DNA of 64,000 nt, taken from positions 1,805 through 65,804 of the forward strand of contig SVJP01000001.1 in assembly GCA_015068925.1 (NCBI GenBank), written 5' to 3'. This stretch comes from Oscillospiraceae bacterium (GTDB taxonomy: Bacteria; Bacillota; Clostridia; HGM11514). This document shows, in pieces, positions 7,064-43,325 of the stretch. A program made the position numbers and the translations under genes. Numbering within the stretch: position 1 is the first letter of the stretch; each line of letters starts with the position of its first letter. Under the pieces are notes generated by a model, which saw only the letters and a program-made list of their open reading frames with translations, did no database searches and was not told the DNA's origin.

Positions 7064-7432
7064 ATGGCAAGAATTGCAGGTGTTGATTTACCCAAGGAAA
7101 AGCGCGTAGAATACGGCTTGACTTATATTTTTGGTATCGGCGTTAGCAGCTCCAGAAAAATTCTTGAAGCAACCGGAATTGATCCGGATACAAGAGTTAA
7201 GGATCTGACAGAAGAACAGGTTGGTTTGCTGCGTGATGCAATCGATAAGGATTACACAGTTGAAGGTGACTTGCGCCGTCAGGTTTCTCTGGACATTAAG
7301 CGTTTGATGGAAATCGGGTGCTATCGTGGTCTGAGACACAGACGCGGACTGCCCGTAAGAGGACAGAACACCAAGAACAACGCACGTACCAGAAAAGGTC
7401 CTAAAAAGACTATGGCAGGTAAGAAAAAGTAA
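7064..7432 (+). CDS. rpsM: 30S ribosomal protein S13
   Basis: 122 aa. [26 protein letters not shown] is the S13 N-terminus. Confidence 0.95.
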
Positions 7433-7450
7433 AGAAGGAGGTTCGATACC

Positions 7451-7846
7451 ATGGCTAAAACAGTGAAAAAAACAACACGCAGAAGACGCGAGCGTAAAAA
7501 TATCGAACGCGGTGCGGTTCATATCCGTTCTTCGTTCAACAATACCATTGTTACCATTACCGATGTTGCCGGTAATGCGATTTCATGGGCGAGCGCAGGC
7601 GGAATGGGCTTTCGCGGTTCTAGAAAGAACACTCCCTTTGCTGCTCAGACTGCTGCAGAAACCGCTGCAAAAGCGGCTATGGAGCATGGCCTGAAAATGG
7701 TTGAAGTATATGTAAAAGGACCCGGCGCCGGAAGAGAGGCTGCAATCAGAGCATTGCAGGGAGCAGGCTTAGAAGTTACTATGATCAAAGACGTAACTCC
7801 CATTCCTCATAACGGATGCAGACCCCCCAAACGCCGCAGAGTTTGA
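7451..7846 (+). CDS. rpsK: 30S ribosomal protein S11
   Basis: 131 aa. [28 protein letters not shown] is S11-like. Confidence 0.95.
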
Positions 7847-7891
7847 TCTGTTGGTAATGCGGGATTACTATTAATTAATGGAGGTGCAGAT

Positions 7892-8518
7892 ATGGCACGT
7901 TATACCGAAGCGGTATGCAGACTTTGCCGCAGAGAAGGCCAGAAGCTTTTTCTGAAGGGCGACCGTTGTTATACAGGAAAATGCGCCGTTGACAGAAGAC
8001 CTTATGCGCCCGGTCAGCACGGCCAGAGCAGAAAAAAGGTTTCTGAATACGGAATTCAGTTAAGAGAAAAACAGAAAGCAAGAAGATATTACGGCGTTTT
8101 GGAAGGTCAGTTCGAAAAATATTTCGTAATGGCTGAAAAGAAAGCCGGAATCACAGGTGAAAACCTGCTGGCAATTTTGGAAAGCAGACTGGACAACGTT
8201 GCTTATAGACTGGGATTTGGAATGTCCCGTCCCGAAGCAAGACAGTTGGTTAGACATGGCCACTTTACCGTAAATGGCAAGAAGGTTGATATTCCTTCCT
8301 ACCTGGTTTCTCCCGGGGATGTAATTGCTGTTAAAGAAGGTAGCCGCGGCAAGACCAAGATTAAGGCAGTTCTGGAAGCAACCGAAGGAAAAGTAATTCC
8401 TAAGTGGCTGGATCTGGATCGTAATACTTTGCAGGCTAAGGTTGTTACCCTGGCAGCAAGAGAAGACATTGACCTCCCGTTGGAAGAACATCTTATTGTT
8501 GAGTATTATTCCAAGTAA
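7892..8518 (+). CDS. rpsD: 30S ribosomal protein S4
   Basis: 208 aa. [31 protein letters not shown] is the S4 N-terminal Zn motif, and an S4 RNA-binding domain follows. Confidence 0.95.
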
Positions 8519-10093: not shown

Positions 10094-12289
10094 TTATACT
10101 TCAATCATCATACGACTCAAGAATTCATCTTGATATTCATCAGACAAATTGACAAACGGTGCTGAAAAACCGCACACACGAACAATGATGTGTCTGTAAT
10201 TCTCCGGGTTTTTTCGAGCTTCAATAAGCTCATCACGATTTACTATATTAGGTTGAATTGCCTGAATGCCGCTTTGAGCCGCTGCAAGAAACAAGGCGAC
10301 AATATTGTCAATATCCAGCTTTCCTGCCGGCAATGTAAGAGTGATTGACGTACTGCAGGCAAACTTTGACATATCAAGCTGTTGAAGTGTATAAAGCAGT
10401 TCGGATACGGATATGGTCCGCTGAAGCCTTGAGGGGCTGAAGCCCTGACTTAAGTAATCACCCCTTCTTCTACCGTTAGGCATTGCCGGAACAGAATCTG
10501 CATTAAAAAGTATCTCAGTATAAAGATGGGAACCGAGACGAAGTTCTCCTTGTTGTGCCATAGGCAAATCTCTTGTAATATCATAGATATCATCAATCAG
10601 TCGTTTTACAAGAGAGATTGATTCTTCTGAGCCATCACCGTAGGAGGGTGCATTTGTTGACATTAGTCGAAGTTCTTCGTTTTGCCATTCAAGTCTGCAT
10701 TGATTAAAAAGCTCTGAGACGGTGCACGCTTTTTTGTCAAAGCAAAGATGTTTTATCGCCAGAAGAGAATCAACCGCATCTGCAAAGAACATTAAATACG
10801 CGGTTTCTCTGTTATATTTACCACCGTTGTTTGTTATATCCTTCAGATTTTCGATACATGGCTTCATAAGGGCAGACAAAGCTCCTACAGGATTTACCTC
10901 GTGCCATACGCGTGTGCCTCTTGAAATTATCATATGCTTATGCATGAACATACGACGTAAAAACCCGATATACCTTACATACAGTTCTTCAAAGCTTTTG
11001 CATTCCTCAAGAGATTCAAAGTAAATCTCGTGCTTTCGCATAAGACTTGTATTATTGTGTATCGACCATTGTAACGGTTTCAAAATATCGACATATTCTC
11101 CGCTGTTATGTATTGAAACATCGCCGGTCAGAATATCCCAGCACCCACCAACGCTGTAGTTGAGTGCATCCTCTCTATCGATTCCGGACCGAATAAGTGC
11201 CGGAATAATGGAATCATCATTAGAGTAAAGACTGAAGCTTTTTCCCTGCATCAAAGGTTCAAATATAAGCTTGAGATATTCCCTGGGAGATTTTTGCGAA
11301 AAGCGGAGCATCATCTTCGGATATATAATATCCTCATTCTCTCTTGCTTTGAGAAACAGTCTTGTAACTCCATTAAATACAGGATTTCCTTCACTGTCAC
11401 ATCCGCCAAGAGTAAGTGTGTTTTCAAGCTCTTGCTCATAGGCATCTGAGATAACTGCCTCTCTTTTAAACAAGCAATCCTGTACTAATAAAAATTTCGT
11501 AACAAGATTAAGCATTTCGTCAGTCGTGACACCGTTTTTTAAATCATTTTCATACAGAGGAGCAAGTAAAACATCTACCCTGCCAAAGGAACTGAATCCC
11601 ATTCCTTCAAGAATACCCAGTGATTTTCGCATAAACGCAAGAGTACACAAGCCCTCGTGAAGTGTTTTCGGAGGATAAATCGGGATACGATTCGCAATTT
11701 CTGAAAGTTCATCGCATCCTACCTCTTTCAGTGCAACAGCAAATTTTTTTGACATTTTACAAAGAGCGTTTATCCCTGCCGTGCAGCAATCGATAAACTC
11801 GACCTGGGTTTCATCAGTACATCTGTTTTTAGCATCGCGAAGCTCGGAAAGAATCCCCGAAAGACCAATTTTGAAAACCTTTTCAAATGGAAGCTGAAGA
11901 TGCATCATATCCGCATATATTCCGGACTGAAGATACATGCCGCCACTGAAAATCATCCTGGCGTGAGGATCAATATCTGTAAAAAGATGACAATTTCTCA
12001 GATAAAGCCATCCATTGGCGTGATTCATACTGCGATTGAATTTACCGTCACCTCTCGGATGAAGCATACCTGCCTCGAAATAAAAAGGAATGTCTTTGAA
12101 TATAACAGGCTTTGCAGCATCAACAATAGCATCATAAAGCTTTGATTTCAGCTTATACGACGATAGATTGGGGTTTTCAGCGTCATAAGCGTCCATCACT
12201 GCGTAAACCTTCTCTGTCGCTTTGGCTGCGGACTCCGCCATCATACCGTGGTAGTATTCACTAAGCTCTTTTCTGATTTTTTTATACAT
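10094..12289 (-). CDS. Glycyl radical enzyme of the pyruvate formate-lyase superfamily, unknown specificity
   Basis: 733 aa from the MYKK start, which lies 5 nt after AAAGGAGG. The C-terminus ARKNPENYRHIIVRVCGFSAPFVNLSDEYQDEFLSRMMIEV matches the GRE glycine-radical region (RVxG[YF]...F..L...Q.E). The conserved P.GRR.GD.LS.G.SP segment lies upstream of it. The candidate Cys loop is NYSVGGCWDI. Confidence 0.85.
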   Translation of the reverse strand: MYKKIRKELSEYYHGMMAESAAKATEKVYAVMDAYDAENPNLSSYKLKSKLYDAIVDAAKPVIFKDIPFYFEAGMLHPRGDGKFNRSMNHANGWLYLRNCHLFTDIDPHARMIFSGGMYLQSGIYADMMHLQLPFEKVFKIGLSGILSELRDAKNRCTDETQVEFIDCCTAGINALCKMSKKFAVALKEVGCDELSEIANRIPIYPPKTLHEGLCTLAFMRKSLGILEGMGFSSFGRVDVLLAPLYENDLKNGVTTDEMLNLVTKFLLVQDCLFKREAVISDAYEQELENTLTLGGCDSEGNPVFNGVTRLFLKARENEDIIYPKMMLRFSQKSPREYLKLIFEPLMQGKSFSLYSNDDSIIPALIRSGIDREDALNYSVGGCWDILTGDVSIHNSGEYVDILKPLQWSIHNNTSLMRKHEIYFESLEECKSFEELYVRYIGFLRRMFMHKHMIISRGTRVWHEVNPVGALSALMKPCIENLKDITNNGGKYNRETAYLMFFADAVDSLLAIKHLCFDKKACTVSELFNQCRLEWQNEELRLMSTNAPSYGDGSEESISLVKRLIDDIYDITRDLPMAQQGELRLGSHLYTEILFNADSVPAMPNGRRRGDYLSQGFSPSRLQRTISVSELLYTLQQLDMSKFACSTSITLTLPAGKLDIDNIVALFLAAAQSGIQAIQPNIVNRDELIEARKNPENYRHIIVRVCGFSAPFVNLSDEYQDEFLSRMMIEV

Positions 12290-12434
12290 ATCTACGCCTC
12301 CTTTTATGATTATAAAACATAAATTTTCTATTACAATAGATTGTAATTTGTTTGTTGTACTTATTATATTATACCACAGGCAAAGTGAATTAGAATAGAC
12401 AATATGAATAATTTGTATAAAAGGGAACAATTTA

Positions 12435-12463
12435 TTGACAAAATATCATAATTATGCTATTAT
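12435..12463 (+). promoter_or_regulatory. Candidate sigma-A promoter for the AraC-family gene
   Basis: TTGACA, a 17 nt spacer, then TATTAT, about 20 nt upstream of the ATG at 12483. Confidence 0.4.
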
Positions 12464-12482
12464 ATTTGTAAAAAAGGGGTAA

Positions 12483-13259
12483 ATGATTATGAAGATAACA
12501 ATAAATTCAATACAGTCAATATACCGCTACAAAACAGACAGAAAAGCCTTCAAAGCTGCAAATCCAACCCGTAGCTTTCACATTCTTTCCTATCAGGAAT
12601 ACGGTCACTACGATCACTATGTGAACGGAAAAGAAATACCCGTAAAAAAAGATATGATATTCTTTATAAACGGGAATGACAACTATAGCGTAAAATGTCG
12701 CGAATACGGAGAATCGCTTTGCATAACTTTTGTTGGTGAAACAGTTTTTCCAACGATGACGATTGATTGCGCGGACAATCCGGAAATCAAAAACCTTTTT
12801 CGAAAACTTACGAAGCTGGGAAACATTGATTTGGACTACAACGCACTGAAAGCTTCAGCTATAATGTACGAAATTTTTGCCTATATGTCAAAAAAGGAAA
12901 ACTCAGAATATGTTTCACCGGACAAACGCGGAAAAATAAAAGAAATTCATTCCTATATTTACGAAAATTACAAAAAAGAGCTTCCAAATTCTTCAGAACT
13001 GTCAGCAAAATGCGGTATTGCTCCGAAATACTTCAGGACGCTTTTCAGGAAAATGTATGGGATAACCCCAACACAATATATCATAGAGTTAAGGCTCAAC
13101 GCCGCTGCAGAGCTTTTGTCGGAAGGAATTCTCAGTGTTGGAGAGGTTGCTGAAGCTGTTGGGTTTTCTGATGTTTATTATTTCAGTAAGCTATTCAAAA
13201 AGCATTTTCTTTCTTCACCAAAGAATTATAAAAGTGTGTCACGGGGACGGGACTCTTGA
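12483..13259 (+). CDS. AraC-family transcriptional regulator with a cupin-like sensor domain and a C-terminal double HTH
   Basis: 258 aa. The C-terminus YFRTLFRKMYGITPTQYIIELRLNAAAELL is a canonical AraC HTH. It is transcribed divergently from the glycyl radical enzyme. Confidence 0.85.
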   Translation: MIMKITINSIQSIYRYKTDRKAFKAANPTRSFHILSYQEYGHYDHYVNGKEIPVKKDMIFFINGNDNYSVKCREYGESLCITFVGETVFPTMTIDCADNPEIKNLFRKLTKLGNIDLDYNALKASAIMYEIFAYMSKKENSEYVSPDKRGKIKEIHSYIYENYKKELPNSSELSAKCGIAPKYFRTLFRKMYGITPTQYIIELRLNAAAELLSEGILSVGEVAEAVGFSDVYYFSKLFKKHFLSSPKNYKSVSRGRDS

Positions 13260-13432
13260 TACAGTGTGACAAAAGGACGGACAACCGGGTAAGACATAAG
13301 ATGCGTATTTAAGTTGACAGCGAAAAAATATATGGTATCATCCTAACTTTGTGTAAACAGGCGTTGTTTCGATTTCGTTAGAACTGTGTTAGAAGAGAGA
13401 TAGTAATTTTTTACGTGAATTTTAACCGAAAC

Positions 13433-13461
13433 TTGACAAATTATACCCGTAGGGGTATAAT
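13433..13461 (+). promoter_or_regulatory. Candidate sigma-A promoter with an embedded palindrome, TATACCC-gtag-GGGTATA
   Basis: TTGACA, a 17 nt spacer, then TATAAT. The 7 bp inverted repeat overlaps the spacer and the -10 box. A second upstream promoter-like site (TTGACA...TGgTATCAT) lies near 13314-13341. Confidence 0.45.
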
Positions 13462-13662
13462 GAAATCATGGATTGAAAGTGAATAATGAATATGGATTTG
13501 AGTTTTATGTGCCGATAGGAAAGATAATTACGAAATGCTTGTTTGCTTTATATAGATGAGCCCGGATATGAAGATGACAAAGAAAAGTGTTTTCGCAGAG
13601 AAATGGAAGAGGCTTATGACTTATTGAAACCATTATGTGATAAAACATTAGGGAGAATTAAA

Positions 13663-14025
13663 ATGTTAAATAAATTATTAAAAAGTGTATTAGACCAAGA
13701 CACAGCCCCTGTGGTTGTTTGCGATATGGATGATATTATTGTGTATATGAATCCGTCAGCGATAGAGCGTTATCACAAGGATTTGACGGGCAAAAGTATT
13801 AAAGGCTGTCATCCTTCATCCGCCAACGAAATGATAGAAAAGGTTCTCGTATGGTTTGGAGAAAGTAAGGACAATAACATCATCTACACCTATCGCAATA
13901 ACGAGGAGAACAAAGATGTGTATATGGTTGCTCTTCGTGATGATGACGGTAGTCTAATCGGCTATTACGAAAAGCATGAGTATAGGAATAGAGAAACAGT
14001 TGGACTTTATCAGCCGAAGAAGTAA
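13663..14025 (+). CDS. Small PAS-fold-like protein, hypothetical
   Basis: 120 aa from the ATG preceded by TAGGGAGA. The sequence VVCDMDDIIVYMNPSAIERYHKD...GCHP resembles a PAS sensor core. The track ORF extends upstream to a TTG at 13543 with a poor Shine-Dalgarno site. Confidence 0.5.
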   Translation: MLNKLLKSVLDQDTAPVVVCDMDDIIVYMNPSAIERYHKDLTGKSIKGCHPSSANEMIEKVLVWFGESKDNNIIYTYRNNEENKDVYMVALRDDDGSLIGYYEKHEYRNRETVGLYQPKK

Positions 14026-39492: not shown

Positions 39493-41109
39493 ATGCCGCA
39501 AAAAAATGAAATCATGACTTTGACCGCCTGCGGATATACCAACGAAGGAGAAGGCGTTTGTCGGGCGGAGGGATTTGTTGTTTTTGTTCCCGGGATGTTG
39601 GAAGGGGAGCAGGCAGAGGTCCAATTATTGAAGGTGAAAAAGACCTATGCTTATGGGAAAATTGTCCGTTTACTGAACCAATCGGAAGAAAGAAATGAGA
39701 TTGATTGCCCGTCCTTCCCCCAATGCGGAGGATGTAAGCTTCGGCATATGTCTTACGAGGAAGAATTAAAGTTGAAAAAGCAGCTTGTGACAGATGCGGT
39801 GGAGCGAATCGGCGGATTGCATCTGAAGGTTTGGGAGGTGAGACCTTCTCCCAAGCAATTTCATTATCGGAATAAAGCTCAGCTTCCTGTGGGAATGGAG
39901 AATGGTGTTCCTGTTACGGGATTTTTTGCAGCACGGTCTCATCGTTTGGTTTCTTGTCAAAATTGCTTGATCGGGGACGAACGAACCGATCTTGCTTCCA
40001 AAGCCTTGGCAGAGTATATGCAAAAGACAGGGGCAACCGTTTATGATGAAACCACTCACCGCGGACTCATTCGCCATTTGTATCTTCGGTATGGTACCGA
40101 AAAAACCATGGTTTGTGTGGTAACAAACGGCAAGAAATTACCAAATTCCGAGCTTTTGTGTGAAAAAATGAGGAATGCATTAGGAGAACAAATTACGGTA
40201 GTGCAAAATGTGAACACCGAAAAAACCAATGTGGTGTTGGGGAAGGAAATGATTCCTCTCTTTGGTGACGGAACCATCAGCGACCGTCTTTGCGGTTTGG
40301 AATTTCAGATTTCACCCCATTCCTTTTTTCAGGTGAATCATGCTCAAACGGAGCAACTATATCAAAAAGCGGTGGAATTATCAGCCGTTTCCAAAGAGGA
40401 TACCATCCTTGATTTGTACTGCGGAATCGGCACCATGACCTTGCTGTTTGCAGATAAGGCAAAGAAGGCGTACGGCGTGGAAATTGTTCCTCAGGCCATT
40501 GAAAATGCCAAGAAAAACGCAGAGAAAAACGGGATTGAAAATGTGGAATTTTTATGCGGTGATGCCTCAACTGCGGTGAAAAAATTTGAGAATGAACCTG
40601 TGGATGTGGTGGTTGTTGACCCTCCCAGAACGGGATGTTCAGCTGAATTAATAGATTCGATTTTGAAAATTTCTCCCAAACGGATTATTTATGTTTCCTG
40701 TAATCCTGCCACCCTTGCACGGGATATGAAACTGTTTGCAGAGTCCGGGTACATGGGAGAAGAGGTGTATCCTTTTGATATGTTCCCAAGAACTGCGCAT
40801 GTGGAGACAGTAGCACTTTTGACCAAACTGAAAGAAAGCGACTCTATAACAGTTGAACTTAATTTGGATGAACTTGAAGTAACTGCACCCGAAATGAAAG
40901 CAACATATGGTCAGATAAAAGAATATGTTTTAAACAAATATGGTTTTAAGGTGTCGTCTTTAAATATTGCACAAGTTAAAAAAGAATGCGGAATTATTGA
41001 AAGAGAAAACTATAATAAACCATCGGATGACTACAAACAACCAAATTGTCCGAAAACAAAAGCGGATGCTATTAAAGATGCTTTTAAATATTTTAAGATG
41101 ATAAATTAG
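39493..41109 (+). CDS. rlmD: 23S rRNA (uracil-C5)-methyltransferase RlmD/RumA with an extra C-terminal extension of about 85 aa
   Basis: The N-terminal TRAM domain is followed by the 4Fe-4S Cys ligands (CPSFPQCGGCKLRHM...C). The SAM-methyltransferase motifs are DLYCGIGTMT and VVVDPPRTG, and the domain ends ...DMFPRTAHVETVALL. The AT-rich tail encodes KESDSITVELN...KDAFKYFKMIN. Confidence 0.85.
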   Translation: MPQKNEIMTLTACGYTNEGEGVCRAEGFVVFVPGMLEGEQAEVQLLKVKKTYAYGKIVRLLNQSEERNEIDCPSFPQCGGCKLRHMSYEEELKLKKQLVTDAVERIGGLHLKVWEVRPSPKQFHYRNKAQLPVGMENGVPVTGFFAARSHRLVSCQNCLIGDERTDLASKALAEYMQKTGATVYDETTHRGLIRHLYLRYGTEKTMVCVVTNGKKLPNSELLCEKMRNALGEQITVVQNVNTEKTNVVLGKEMIPLFGDGTISDRLCGLEFQISPHSFFQVNHAQTEQLYQKAVELSAVSKEDTILDLYCGIGTMTLLFADKAKKAYGVEIVPQAIENAKKNAEKNGIENVEFLCGDASTAVKKFENEPVDVVVVDPPRTGCSAELIDSILKISPKRIIYVSCNPATLARDMKLFAESGYMGEEVYPFDMFPRTAHVETVALLTKLKESDSITVELNLDELEVTAPEMKATYGQIKEYVLNKYGFKVSSLNIAQVKKECGIIERENYNKPSDDYKQPNCPKTKADAIKDAFKYFKMIN

Positions 41110-41151
41110 CAGTTTATAGTTCGGTGTTTCAACAGAAAGGATATAAATAAT

Positions 41152-41547
41152 ATGATAGTATTTAGAATGAGTACAAAACAAGGTAAAAAAATTGAATTTT
41201 CATATAGTGGTTATATGAAATACAAACCTAACAAATCATCAACTAGCGGATATGGTTCTGATGATTGGTTTTATCTTTGTTTTAGTCAAGATGAATCATA
41301 CATGCTTATATTTTCTGACGATGCAGGATATGGGACTATATGGGAATGTTTTCAGCTTGTTGAAGGCGAGAACGAAAAACTAAAAAATGCCGAAATTGAT
41401 TTGTGGATAGATACATATTTCAAAAAACGTGATCGATTCAGCATTTCTGGTTTGCATCTTGAAAATATTGATGAAGTTAAAGCTATATTACCAAAATGTT
41501 CAAGGTGTTATAACTTCAACGATCAACACTATCGTGGAATGTACTAA
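41152..41547 (+). CDS. Hypothetical protein in the AT-rich islet
   Basis: 131 aa with no recognisable motif. Low GC. Preceded by AAAGGATATAAATAAT. Confidence 0.4.
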   Translation: MIVFRMSTKQGKKIEFSYSGYMKYKPNKSSTSGYGSDDWFYLCFSQDESYMLIFSDDAGYGTIWECFQLVEGENEKLKNAEIDLWIDTYFKKRDRFSISGLHLENIDEVKAILPKCSRCYNFNDQHYRGMY

Positions 41548-41914
41548 AATGGGTATAGTAATCGGCAAGATAACTATACATCCAAAAGGGTATATCATAG
41601 TAAATCTAAAATGAAAGTTGAATATTTTTAAAATATATAAAAACAACAACTCGACCACACAAATGGGAAAGTTGATTTCTTTCCTGATTGCATGGCGAAA
41701 AAACTTTGAAAAACACCTGTTTTAGCAGGTTTGCAAAATGCCATAAGCCCTTATTACATAAGAGTTTATGGCATGACATATATAGTTTGTACAAAGGGTT
41801 TCACGCCGAGTGCGTTGTACTGCTTCAATAACTAAGTTTACCTGACAAAAACAAGATTTGTATTACACCAAAAACCGGTATAGAATGAAATGAAAATACA
41901 ACAAGAGAAAGCAG

Positions 41915-42794: not shown

Positions 42795-43325
42795 ATGAAA
42801 ACGATTGTAGTTTATAAAACCAAATACGGTTCCACAAAGAAGTATGCAGAGTGGATCGGAGAAGAACTGAATTGCCCCGTTGTTGAGGCGAAATCGGTAA
42901 AAGCGGAGGATTTGGCAGAGTATGACGCCATTGTTTACGGCGGAGGGCTGTATGCCGAGGTGATCAACGGTGTTACTCTATTGACCAAAAATATGGAAAA
43001 ATTGGAAGGGAAAAGGTTGGCGATTTATACTACGGGCATTACCCCCTTGGAATATGAGGAATATTACGGAAAAATGGTAATGGAGAAAAATTTCAAACCC
43101 GAAATCAGAGGAAAAATAAAAACATTCCATTTCTTGGGTAAAATGGTTTTGAAGGAATTGTCTCCCGTGCACAGAACTGCGCTGAAAACCTTGAAGAAAA
43201 TCATGTCCTCTAAGGAAAATCCAACCGAAATGGAGCGACTGTTGGTGACTCTTTGTGATGCAGACGGGGATTTTTCCGATCGGGAGTCTATCAAACCATT
43301 GATTGAATACATAAGAGAAGGATGA
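42795..43325 (+). CDS. Flavodoxin-domain protein
   Basis: MKTIVVYKTKYGSTKKYAEWIGEEL is a flavodoxin-like FMN-binding N-terminus. Confidence 0.7.
   Translation: MKTIVVYKTKYGSTKKYAEWIGEELNCPVVEAKSVKAEDLAEYDAIVYGGGLYAEVINGVTLLTKNMEKLEGKRLAIYTTGITPLEYEEYYGKMVMEKNFKPEIRGKIKTFHFLGKMVLKELSPVHRTALKTLKKIMSSKENPTEMERLLVTLCDADGDFSDRESIKPLIEYIREG

Follow-up and report, generated by a model that had tools for sequence, protein, structure and literature searches.

What interrupts the rlmD (rumA) gene on contig SVJP01000001.1 of an Oscillospiraceae bacterium (assembly GCA_015068925.1)? In the 64-kb stretch analyzed here (positions 1,805 to 65,804 of the contig; hereinafter the window, to which all coordinates refer unless a locus is named), this gene encodes a protein of 538 amino acids (aa) with an AT-rich 3′ end and is followed by an orphan gene, within a housekeeping neighborhood (ileS, lspA and rluD upstream; EamA, flavodoxin and TraX genes downstream). 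Very probably, the AT-rich islet is an element devoid of a recombinase gene, placed by a large serine recombinase (LSR) at the canonical rumA/rlmD target. It forms a discrete insertion of 1,004 bp (40806-41809) whose coding content is confined to 100 codons fused in frame to rlmD (hereinafter ext) and an open reading frame (ORF) for a 131-aa protein (ORF131); it contains no conjugation, mobilization or phage module. Its GC content, 0.313, is the minimum among all 1,004-bp segments of the 64 kb (mean 0.413, standard deviation 0.028), and the sharp fall near 40800 reported in the initial annotation, which was made from the sequence without database searches, is measured as a drop from approximately 0.44-0.45 across rlmD to 0.27-0.34 at about 40.8-41.9 kb. 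The same annotation noted the absence of an integrase; indeed, no LSR was detected in the islet or in the whole window by tblastn with three LSRs (E ≤ 1e-5).

Boundaries of the insertion in rlmD

The product of rlmD (39493-41109; like all features of the gene and the islet listed below, on the plus strand) matches the rumA family TIGR00479 over residues 17-438, including the catalytic domain (E 3e-136; 454.6 bits against a cutoff of 183.55), and the PF05958 match ends at residue 445. The chromosomal part of the gene (39493-40805) comprises codons 1-438, the last of them, for the Glu of the C-terminal HVE motif (Glu438), only as far as its GA; nucleotides 40798-40806 read CAT GTG GAG (HVE) and are followed by AT-rich DNA. 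At the opposite end of the islet, positions 41808-41831 read GAG TGC GTT GTA CTG CTT CAA TAA, that is, ECVVLLQ-stop, a typical RumA C-terminus, in frame behind a His-Ala pair that mimics HVE. This segment comprises the core GAG (41808-41810) of the right attachment site (attR) and the displaced native 3′ end of rlmD (seven codons counting Glu), which now sits, untranslated, directly behind attR. Rejoining the flanks at the GA yields an RlmD of 444 aa that ends in ...FPRTAHVECVVLLQ (HVECVVLLQ). Thus, the extension beyond the usual end of RlmD, initially put at about 85 AT-rich codons, is real and consists of 100 element codons (residues 439-538) that replace only the last six native residues (CVVLLQ). 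As the catalytic domain is preserved as far as the HVE motif, RlmD probably stays active.

The rebuilt gene is backed by the nearest relatives, by their native rlmD ends and by joints in other metagenomes, which are independent of each other. A search of a collection of 5.8 billion proteins for relatives of RlmD and ORF131 showed that the nine closest RlmD proteins (62-80% identity) are all 446-459 aa long and unextended. The evidence of an empty site comes from this search and from two NCBI loci in metagenome-assembled genomes (MAGs), L178 and L179, with RlmD identities of 80% and 78%, respectively. Both share with the window the backbone ileS-lspA-rluD-rlmD-(EamA)-flavodoxin-TraX and lack ext as well as ORF131, so that the extended C-terminus and the downstream ORF are not conserved in the related core genomes. 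The 5′ part of rlmD is collinear with these loci at 77-80% identity; nucleotide homology to L178 stops at 40806 and returns at 41901 (EamA), and homology to L179 stops at 40811 and returns at 42795 (flavodoxin). At the insertion point, the uninterrupted rlmD of L178 reads GAG TGC..., like the attR side of the window, and the native rlmD end of L179, ATGCTTCAACAAGGTAGTTTGCCT, aligns with window positions 41821-41846, CTGCTTCAATAACTAAGTTTACCT; this makes the displaced tail an ortholog of a native rlmD 3′ end. In L178 (GCA_045540615.1), a different low-GC insert (7314-8058; GC 0.33 compared to 0.41 for the contig) lies between rlmD and EamA; its product, a GDSL-lipase-like protein of 210 aa, overlaps the end of the 459-aa RlmD, the tail of which is HVECCVLLCQESIIQLKEGVKNER; the rlmD-EamA intergenic position is thus variable even between close relatives.

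The complementary arrangement, with the two ends of the islet joined to each other, was found in two contigs from other metagenomes, L091 and L092, where sequence related to the islet right end (window 41617/41668-41810, 72-73% identity) abuts sequence related to the left end (from 40797/40798, 88-91% identity); these right-to-left joints are the junction that is expected of an excised circle or of a tandem array. In an alignment of attL, attR and these attP-type joints, CAYGYSGAG is the only shared block, with the left arm of the core tracking the element right end and the right arm tracking the element left end. Because only the core is shared, the element can be delimited as 40806-41809, with the attL core GAG at 40804-40806 and the crossover dinucleotide GA at 40804-40805; the direct repeat is limited to GAG, since the LSR acts at the GA dinucleotide. 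The insertion site, the GA in the codon for the Glu of the C-terminal HVE motif, matches the published rumA target: vanG and ICE-r elements (ICE, integrative and conjugative element) insert at a GA in the rumA codon that is 11th counting back from the 3′ end (Srinivasan et al. 2014, PMC4120198), and the native rumA tail in group B Streptococcus (GBS) is ECVALLQRSKG (PMC4120198). The rebuilt attB junction is ...CCAAGAACTGCGCATGTGGAGTGCGTTGTACTGCTTCAATAA and the rebuilt attP junction is ...AGTTTGTACAAAGGGTTTCACGCCGAGACAGTAGCACTTTTGACC...; the latter carries imperfect inverted repeats on both sides of the GA, AGTTTGTACAAAG (41784-41796) and CTTTTGACCAAACT (40816-40829). Thus, the search for attachment sites suggested in the initial annotation recovered attL, attR, the displaced native tail and attP-type joints, with the break of homology located at the attL core.

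The left-end module, the cargo and the right arm

Ext (40807-41109), the known left-end module of rumA-targeting elements, consists of 100 element codons and a stop codon and includes the P′ half-site with its inverted repeat. It belongs to no Pfam or NCBIfam family and has no PADLOC match; the sole library match is to PHROG 27283 (E 7e-7). Homologs of ext fall into 756 clusters at 90% and 3,476 clusters at 50% identity (2,097 of the latter with E ≤ 1e-10), and the match is almost always located at the extreme C-terminus of the carrier protein. A Pfam scan of representative carriers identified two types, RumA and LSRs. In particular, P0191 is a full 648-aa LSR (Resolvase, Recombinase and Zn_ribbon domains) with ext at residues 542-648; P0142, P0248 and P0210 are partial LSRs that carry ext; and P0014 is a C-terminal fragment of an LSR the ext of which is 73% identical to that of the window. 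Streptococcal copies are also among the homologs, for example, one from S. equi (P0056; 62% identity). Thus, ext is the module that makes up the recombinase C-terminus while an autonomous rumA element is excised and that passes to RumA on integration. The reading frame of ext is identical in the RumA and recombinase fusions, consistent with Srinivasan et al. but not with Ambroset et al. 2016 (PMC4701971), who mention a change of frame and describe how rumA and the serine integrase gene reciprocally exchange their 3′ parts.

The ratios of nonsynonymous to synonymous substitution rates (dN/dS) for ext are in the range of 0.07 to 0.15 at dS of 0.4 to 1.1 (window, L091, L092 and another contig, L093); ext is a genuine protein under strong purifying selection. 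The AlphaFold2 (AF2) model, of moderate confidence, consists of three helices (predicted local distance difference test, pLDDT, 72.6) and has no matching solved structure. Copies of ext are found also at the ends of phage records, two of which are named '..._rum', and on plasmids, mostly from Enterococcus. The plasmid copies are divergent homologs (36.5% identity over the full length) from 96 records, 90 of them from Enterococcus (e.g. NZ_KR936172.1:16900-17199); among the matches listed, many are from swine isolates, and the annotation of those listed is 'hypothetical protein' or absent. In addition, a 1,090-aa protein without a Pfam domain (P0203) ends with ...NNKTVETVVQLVRKKPDT followed by a full ext, which may reflect insertion of an ext-bearing element at a secondary site, in a gene other than rumA. 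A search for related loci in genome and metagenome contigs yielded only relatives with at most 52% identity; among the 68 GTDB species representatives with a readable rlmD 3′ end (≤52% identity to the window RlmD), a short native tail is present in 51, ext is complete in 9 and truncated in 6, and in 2 the end is off the contig. The genes located 3′ of ext vary by locus and are often defense-like, including GmrSD, a C5 methylase with an HNH nuclease, AAA_13/AAA_21 ATPases and Sel1 and, in L093, Tox-GHH/SUKH, dynamin-like GTPases and HEPN AbiU2.

ORF131 (41152-41547) is the single cargo gene. The initial annotation found no detectable motifs in its product, and the searches agree: there is no Pfam, NCBIfam or PADLOC match and no match in phage records, and there is only a PHROG match with an E-value of 0.035. 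For the orphan immunity protein suggested in the initial annotation, the fold and family searches likewise gave no match. The homologs of ORF131 form 7 clusters among the 5.8 billion proteins. The dN/dS values of 0.19 to 0.28 indicate that it is a real gene under purifying selection, and the confident AF2 model (pLDDT 80.4; predicted template modeling score, pTM, 0.78) is a five-stranded sheet with helices that has no counterpart in PDB or BFVD. In all five contexts examined (the window, L092, L003, L004 and L005), ORF131 directly follows ext or a short rumA-type tail, and this position suggests that it is left-end cargo of elements at the rumA site.

Downstream of ORF131, there are 367 bp of non-coding DNA (41548-41914), somewhat more than the 300 bp originally given for the stretch with the nested palindrome. 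Most of the part that lies within the element is a conserved right arm (P arm; 41617-41807) of about 190 bp that ends in the P half-site with its inverted repeat and shows 70-73% identity to its counterparts in L091, L092 and L093, which continue into either ext or a native rumA tail; all four arms contain the 15-mer AGTTTGTACAAAGGG unchanged. The possibility that the right arm is a degenerate 3′ end of a recombinase gene was ruled out, given the lack of nucleotide or protein similarity to serine-recombinase 3′ ends, and a scan of viral contigs with the right-arm pattern gave no matches. A peptide that spans the junction of a variant right arm with ext, P0017, represents a cluster of 45 member sequences. 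A hairpin at 41651-41698 (RNA fold of -16.8 kcal/mol, z = -4.5) is partly conserved among the four arms, RNAalifold retaining the stem with one compensatory pair. The nested palindrome (41738-41774), the presence of which stands, has 17-nt arms that are 88% complementary (-9.7 kcal/mol as single-stranded DNA, z = -5.2 versus shuffled sequences) and is specific to the window copy. It was rejected as an att or structural feature of the element because the corresponding segments of L091, L092 and L093 show no folding (z from -0.3 to +0.1) and because it lies 35-70 bp outside the core, beyond the att half-site; the palindrome is probably incidental. The right arm and the displaced rlmD tail are also covered by a 47-aa ORF (41688-41831; MHGEK...SLYKGFHAECVVLLQ) that is in all likelihood spurious; in other contigs, the matching frame runs into ext and is called as proteins of 107-120 aa (P0001, P0004 and P0017).

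The elements with these common ends differ in cargo: ORF131 in the window and L092, a 229-aa protein in L091, and an 800-aa protein together with a HEPN-domain AbiU2 in L093; PADLOC gave no match for the cargo of the related elements. No recombinase is encoded within the element in the window or in L093, nor in what has been sequenced of contigs L091 and L092. The L093 copy (3.7 kb) ends with the right arm followed by the native tail of the host, HVECLVLMSRGDK-stop, and stands in tandem with an LSR-carrying island. Judged by these shared ends, the islet and the copies in L091-L093 look like members of a small recombinase-less family in which the ends are conserved, and not like the product of a single in situ deletion. 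The tandem array at rumA in L093 (positions 1-20288 of a 38.5-kb contig, ENA ERZ19289511/NCBI) starts with an island that encodes Tox-GHH and SUKH immunity genes, a serine recombinase, a recombinase fragment and two dynamin-like GTPases; beyond the native tail lie Mac-1, NUDIX and caspase-like genes and two or three further serine recombinases. In L091 (3035-3208), a second, truncated ext, with 85.6% nucleotide identity to window 41000-41103, is located about 1.3 kb downstream of the first one, next to a 23S_rRNA_IVP-family gene and an HTH-AAA_28-CYTH gene, which suggests repeated accretion and decay. In situ decay at the rumA site is apparent as well in L015 (5318-6260; Oscillospiraceae MAG fecal_MAG_370), where an independent mini-islet of about 0.9 kb within rlmD contains an ext truncated after 68 residues, a membrane-like ORF and the right junction ...SWDNEKHVE|TVALISKK-stop, in which the last recombinase codons are kept.

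In the islet, Rfam returned a single sub-threshold small nucleolar RNA (snoRNA) chance match, the promoter scan gave no excess over the shuffled background, and the terminator scan found two terminator-like hairpins on the minus strand. The GC-skew switch near 44 kb was discarded as a notable feature, for it merely follows a minus-strand operon. The second-lowest GC region of the window (12000-14000; GC 0.36) surrounds a gene for an AraC-family regulator (12483-13259), which adjoins a gene for a glycyl-radical (PFL-like) enzyme (10094-12430) on the opposite strand.

Origin of the islet

We propose that an LSR, acting on the GA of the Glu codon in the HVE motif, inserted the element into rlmD. 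Insertion swapped the last six native codons (CVVLLQ) for the 100 codons of ext and, therefore, RlmD reads through attL into the left end of the element. The two ends together reconstitute an LSR-type attP. Integration, and in principle excision, would depend entirely on an LSR that a co-resident element provides in trans; excision would be possible given the helper and its directionality factor. As no helper recombinase is encoded within the 64 kb, mobilization in trans is what we infer. The window copy presumably cannot move alone and would be a non-autonomous member of the rumA-element family or a decayed derivative that subsequently spread. The suggestion in the initial annotation of a remnant or derivative of a lost or decayed mobile element at the rumA hotspot is borne out by the att sites, the displaced tail and the break of homology at attL.

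Several observations weigh against LSR-mediated insertion of a recombinase-less element. The direct repeat is just 3 bp, which is normal for LSRs and weak when taken alone. The rebuilt attB, searched for as an exact or gapped DNA pattern in metagenome contigs, gave no matches; neither a strain-level empty site nor a circular form of the exact element was found, the nearest relatives being only 78-80% identical. The joints in L091 and L092 could be tandem copies and not circles, and the window itself encodes no helper recombinase. Finally, in L003 and L004, the ORF131 homolog directly follows a rumA-type tail without ext and without a recognizable right arm, because of which the assignment of ORF131 as element cargo is strong but not airtight.

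The same absence of a helper would also fit an inert remnant formed in situ, whereby a full-size ICE, integrative and mobilizable element (IME) or prophage lost everything between ORF131 and the last ~190 bp and the islet was never mobile as a 1-kb unit. Decayed elements are common at rumA (PMC4701971, PMC4120198), L015 is an independent remnant of about 0.9 kb with a truncated ext and the recombinase C-terminal remnant SWDNEKHVE, and the closeness of the ext at the recombinase C-terminus P0014 (73% identity) is compatible with such an origin. Nonetheless, we consider this quite unlikely: the ~190-bp right arm, which is dissimilar to recombinase 3′ ends, recurs in three other contigs with other cargo and with no recombinase adjoining it in the available sequence; the junction peptide P0017 stands for 45 member sequences; and the low dN/dS of ext was measured precisely within the recombinase-less group. 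An origin as native, vertically inherited sequence, that is, a lineage-specific C-terminal domain of RlmD and a core downstream gene with incidentally low GC, would account for the purifying selection on both ext and ORF131 and for some form of ext on RlmD in 17 of the 68 related species representatives. It is nevertheless very improbable considering the nine unextended nearest relatives, the two loci that lack both ext and ORF131, the displaced native tail downstream, the presence of ext on serine recombinases, in phages and on plasmids, and its patchy distribution with variable, often defense-like genes at its flank. As for a chimeric assembly, in which foreign reads would have been joined to rlmD at a short shared motif, the source is metagenomic, and a 1,018-bp contig from a second sample (L002, JGI sample 3300029705) corresponds to window 40776-41793, ending within about 30 bp of the islet boundaries; these ends may mean that the assembly graph branches at the att sites, a sign, if so, of polymorphism or of several contexts. 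However, L002 crosses attL at 99.9% identity, an independent JGI contig (L001) covers both junctions and encodes identical proteins, and the junctions fall exactly on the published recombination core with the reading frame kept, so that the chance of an artifact is practically negligible.

A more far-reaching extension of the preferred scenario, possible although doubtful, is that the islet belongs to a dedicated family of recombinase-less cassettes that parasitize rumA-targeting LSRs. Such cassettes would consist of ext on the left, one to three cargo genes and the conserved ~190-bp right arm, and ext would be a switch or adaptor between the recombinase (excised state) and RumA (integrated state) that controls the direction of or access to recombination and is selected as the key to the recombinase of the helper. 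That ext itself modulates recombinase direction or access is speculative; Olorunniji et al. 2017 (PMC5737554) reported that a serine integrase fused with a directionality factor can have the direction in which it recombines controlled by this fusion.

Recombinase-less remnants at the rumA hotspot are already known as a kind, and the islet adds one case. What is gained is that an odd 538-aa 'RlmD' and an orphan gene are accounted for as a mobile-element scar, with exact boundaries and a reconstructed native gene, and that the rumA hotspot, known mainly from streptococci, enterococci and Roseburia, is extended to uncultured Oscillospirales with often defense-like neighboring cargo. Recombinase-less mini-elements with conserved ends recur at this site. 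Furthermore, ext, with more than 3,400 clusters at 50% identity, no Pfam family and signs of strong purifying selection, changes partners between LSR and RumA on integration; this partner swap provides a testable hypothesis of a built-in directionality switch in LSRs, which are widely used genome-engineering enzymes.

Relationship to known elements

The islet is most readily compared with the rumA-targeting LSR elements, which include ICE-r, vanG, Tn1806/ICESp2905-type ICEs and IMEs, and 'rum' prophages. The view of the rumA 3′ end as a hotspot for Tn5252-type ICEs is right with respect to the hotspot and too narrow with respect to the elements: the published ones use a single serine integrase that acts at the GA and carry Tn5252-, Tn1549- or vanG-type conjugation modules (PMC4701971). 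In these elements, translation of the 5′ part of rumA continues into 101 or 115 homologous left-end codons, 'of unknown significance', and at the right end a serine recombinase gene without a stop codon runs into the native rumA codons (PMC4120198). The islet shares with them the GA target in the Glu codon, the in-frame rumA fusion (100 codons compared to about 101-115), the displaced native tail at the right junction and the imperfect terminal inverted repeats that flank the core; tandem accretion and variable cargo are seen in its relatives as well. Unlike these elements, the islet has no serine recombinase gene at the right end but rather ~190 bp of non-coding DNA, lacks conjugation, mobilization and phage genes, and resides in an uncultured Ruminococcaceae/Oscillospirales bacterium. 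It is also far smaller, at 1.0 kb compared to roughly 16-71 kb for the rumA insertions in GBS (PMC4120198); in streptococci, IMEs average about 10 kb and ICEs 41 kb (PMC5357655).

Two other groups of elements provide parallels. Cis-mobilizable elements (CIMEs; Pavlovic et al. 2004, as cited in PMC5357655) and decayed ICEs (dICE) are, like the islet, bounded by functional-looking att sites and lack recombination and transfer modules. The related copy in L093 is in accretion with an LSR-carrying island at the same site, and mobilization in trans would amount to CIME-like behavior. Unlike the islet, the described CIMEs, as far as is known, belong to tyrosine-integrase ICEs of Streptococcus thermophilus. 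Staphylococcal cassette chromosome (SCC)-like cassettes, including psiSCC, depend on the LSR Ccr and insert into the 3′ end of rlmH (orfX), a 23S rRNA methyltransferase gene. They differ from the islet in the target gene, the recombinase clade and the att sequence, and SCC elements are not known to have an equivalent of the 100-codon ext fusion. Like the islet group, SCC cassettes re-supply the last codons of the target gene, form tandem arrays and include recombinase-less members. The islet resembles a CIME or, by analogy, a psiSCC.

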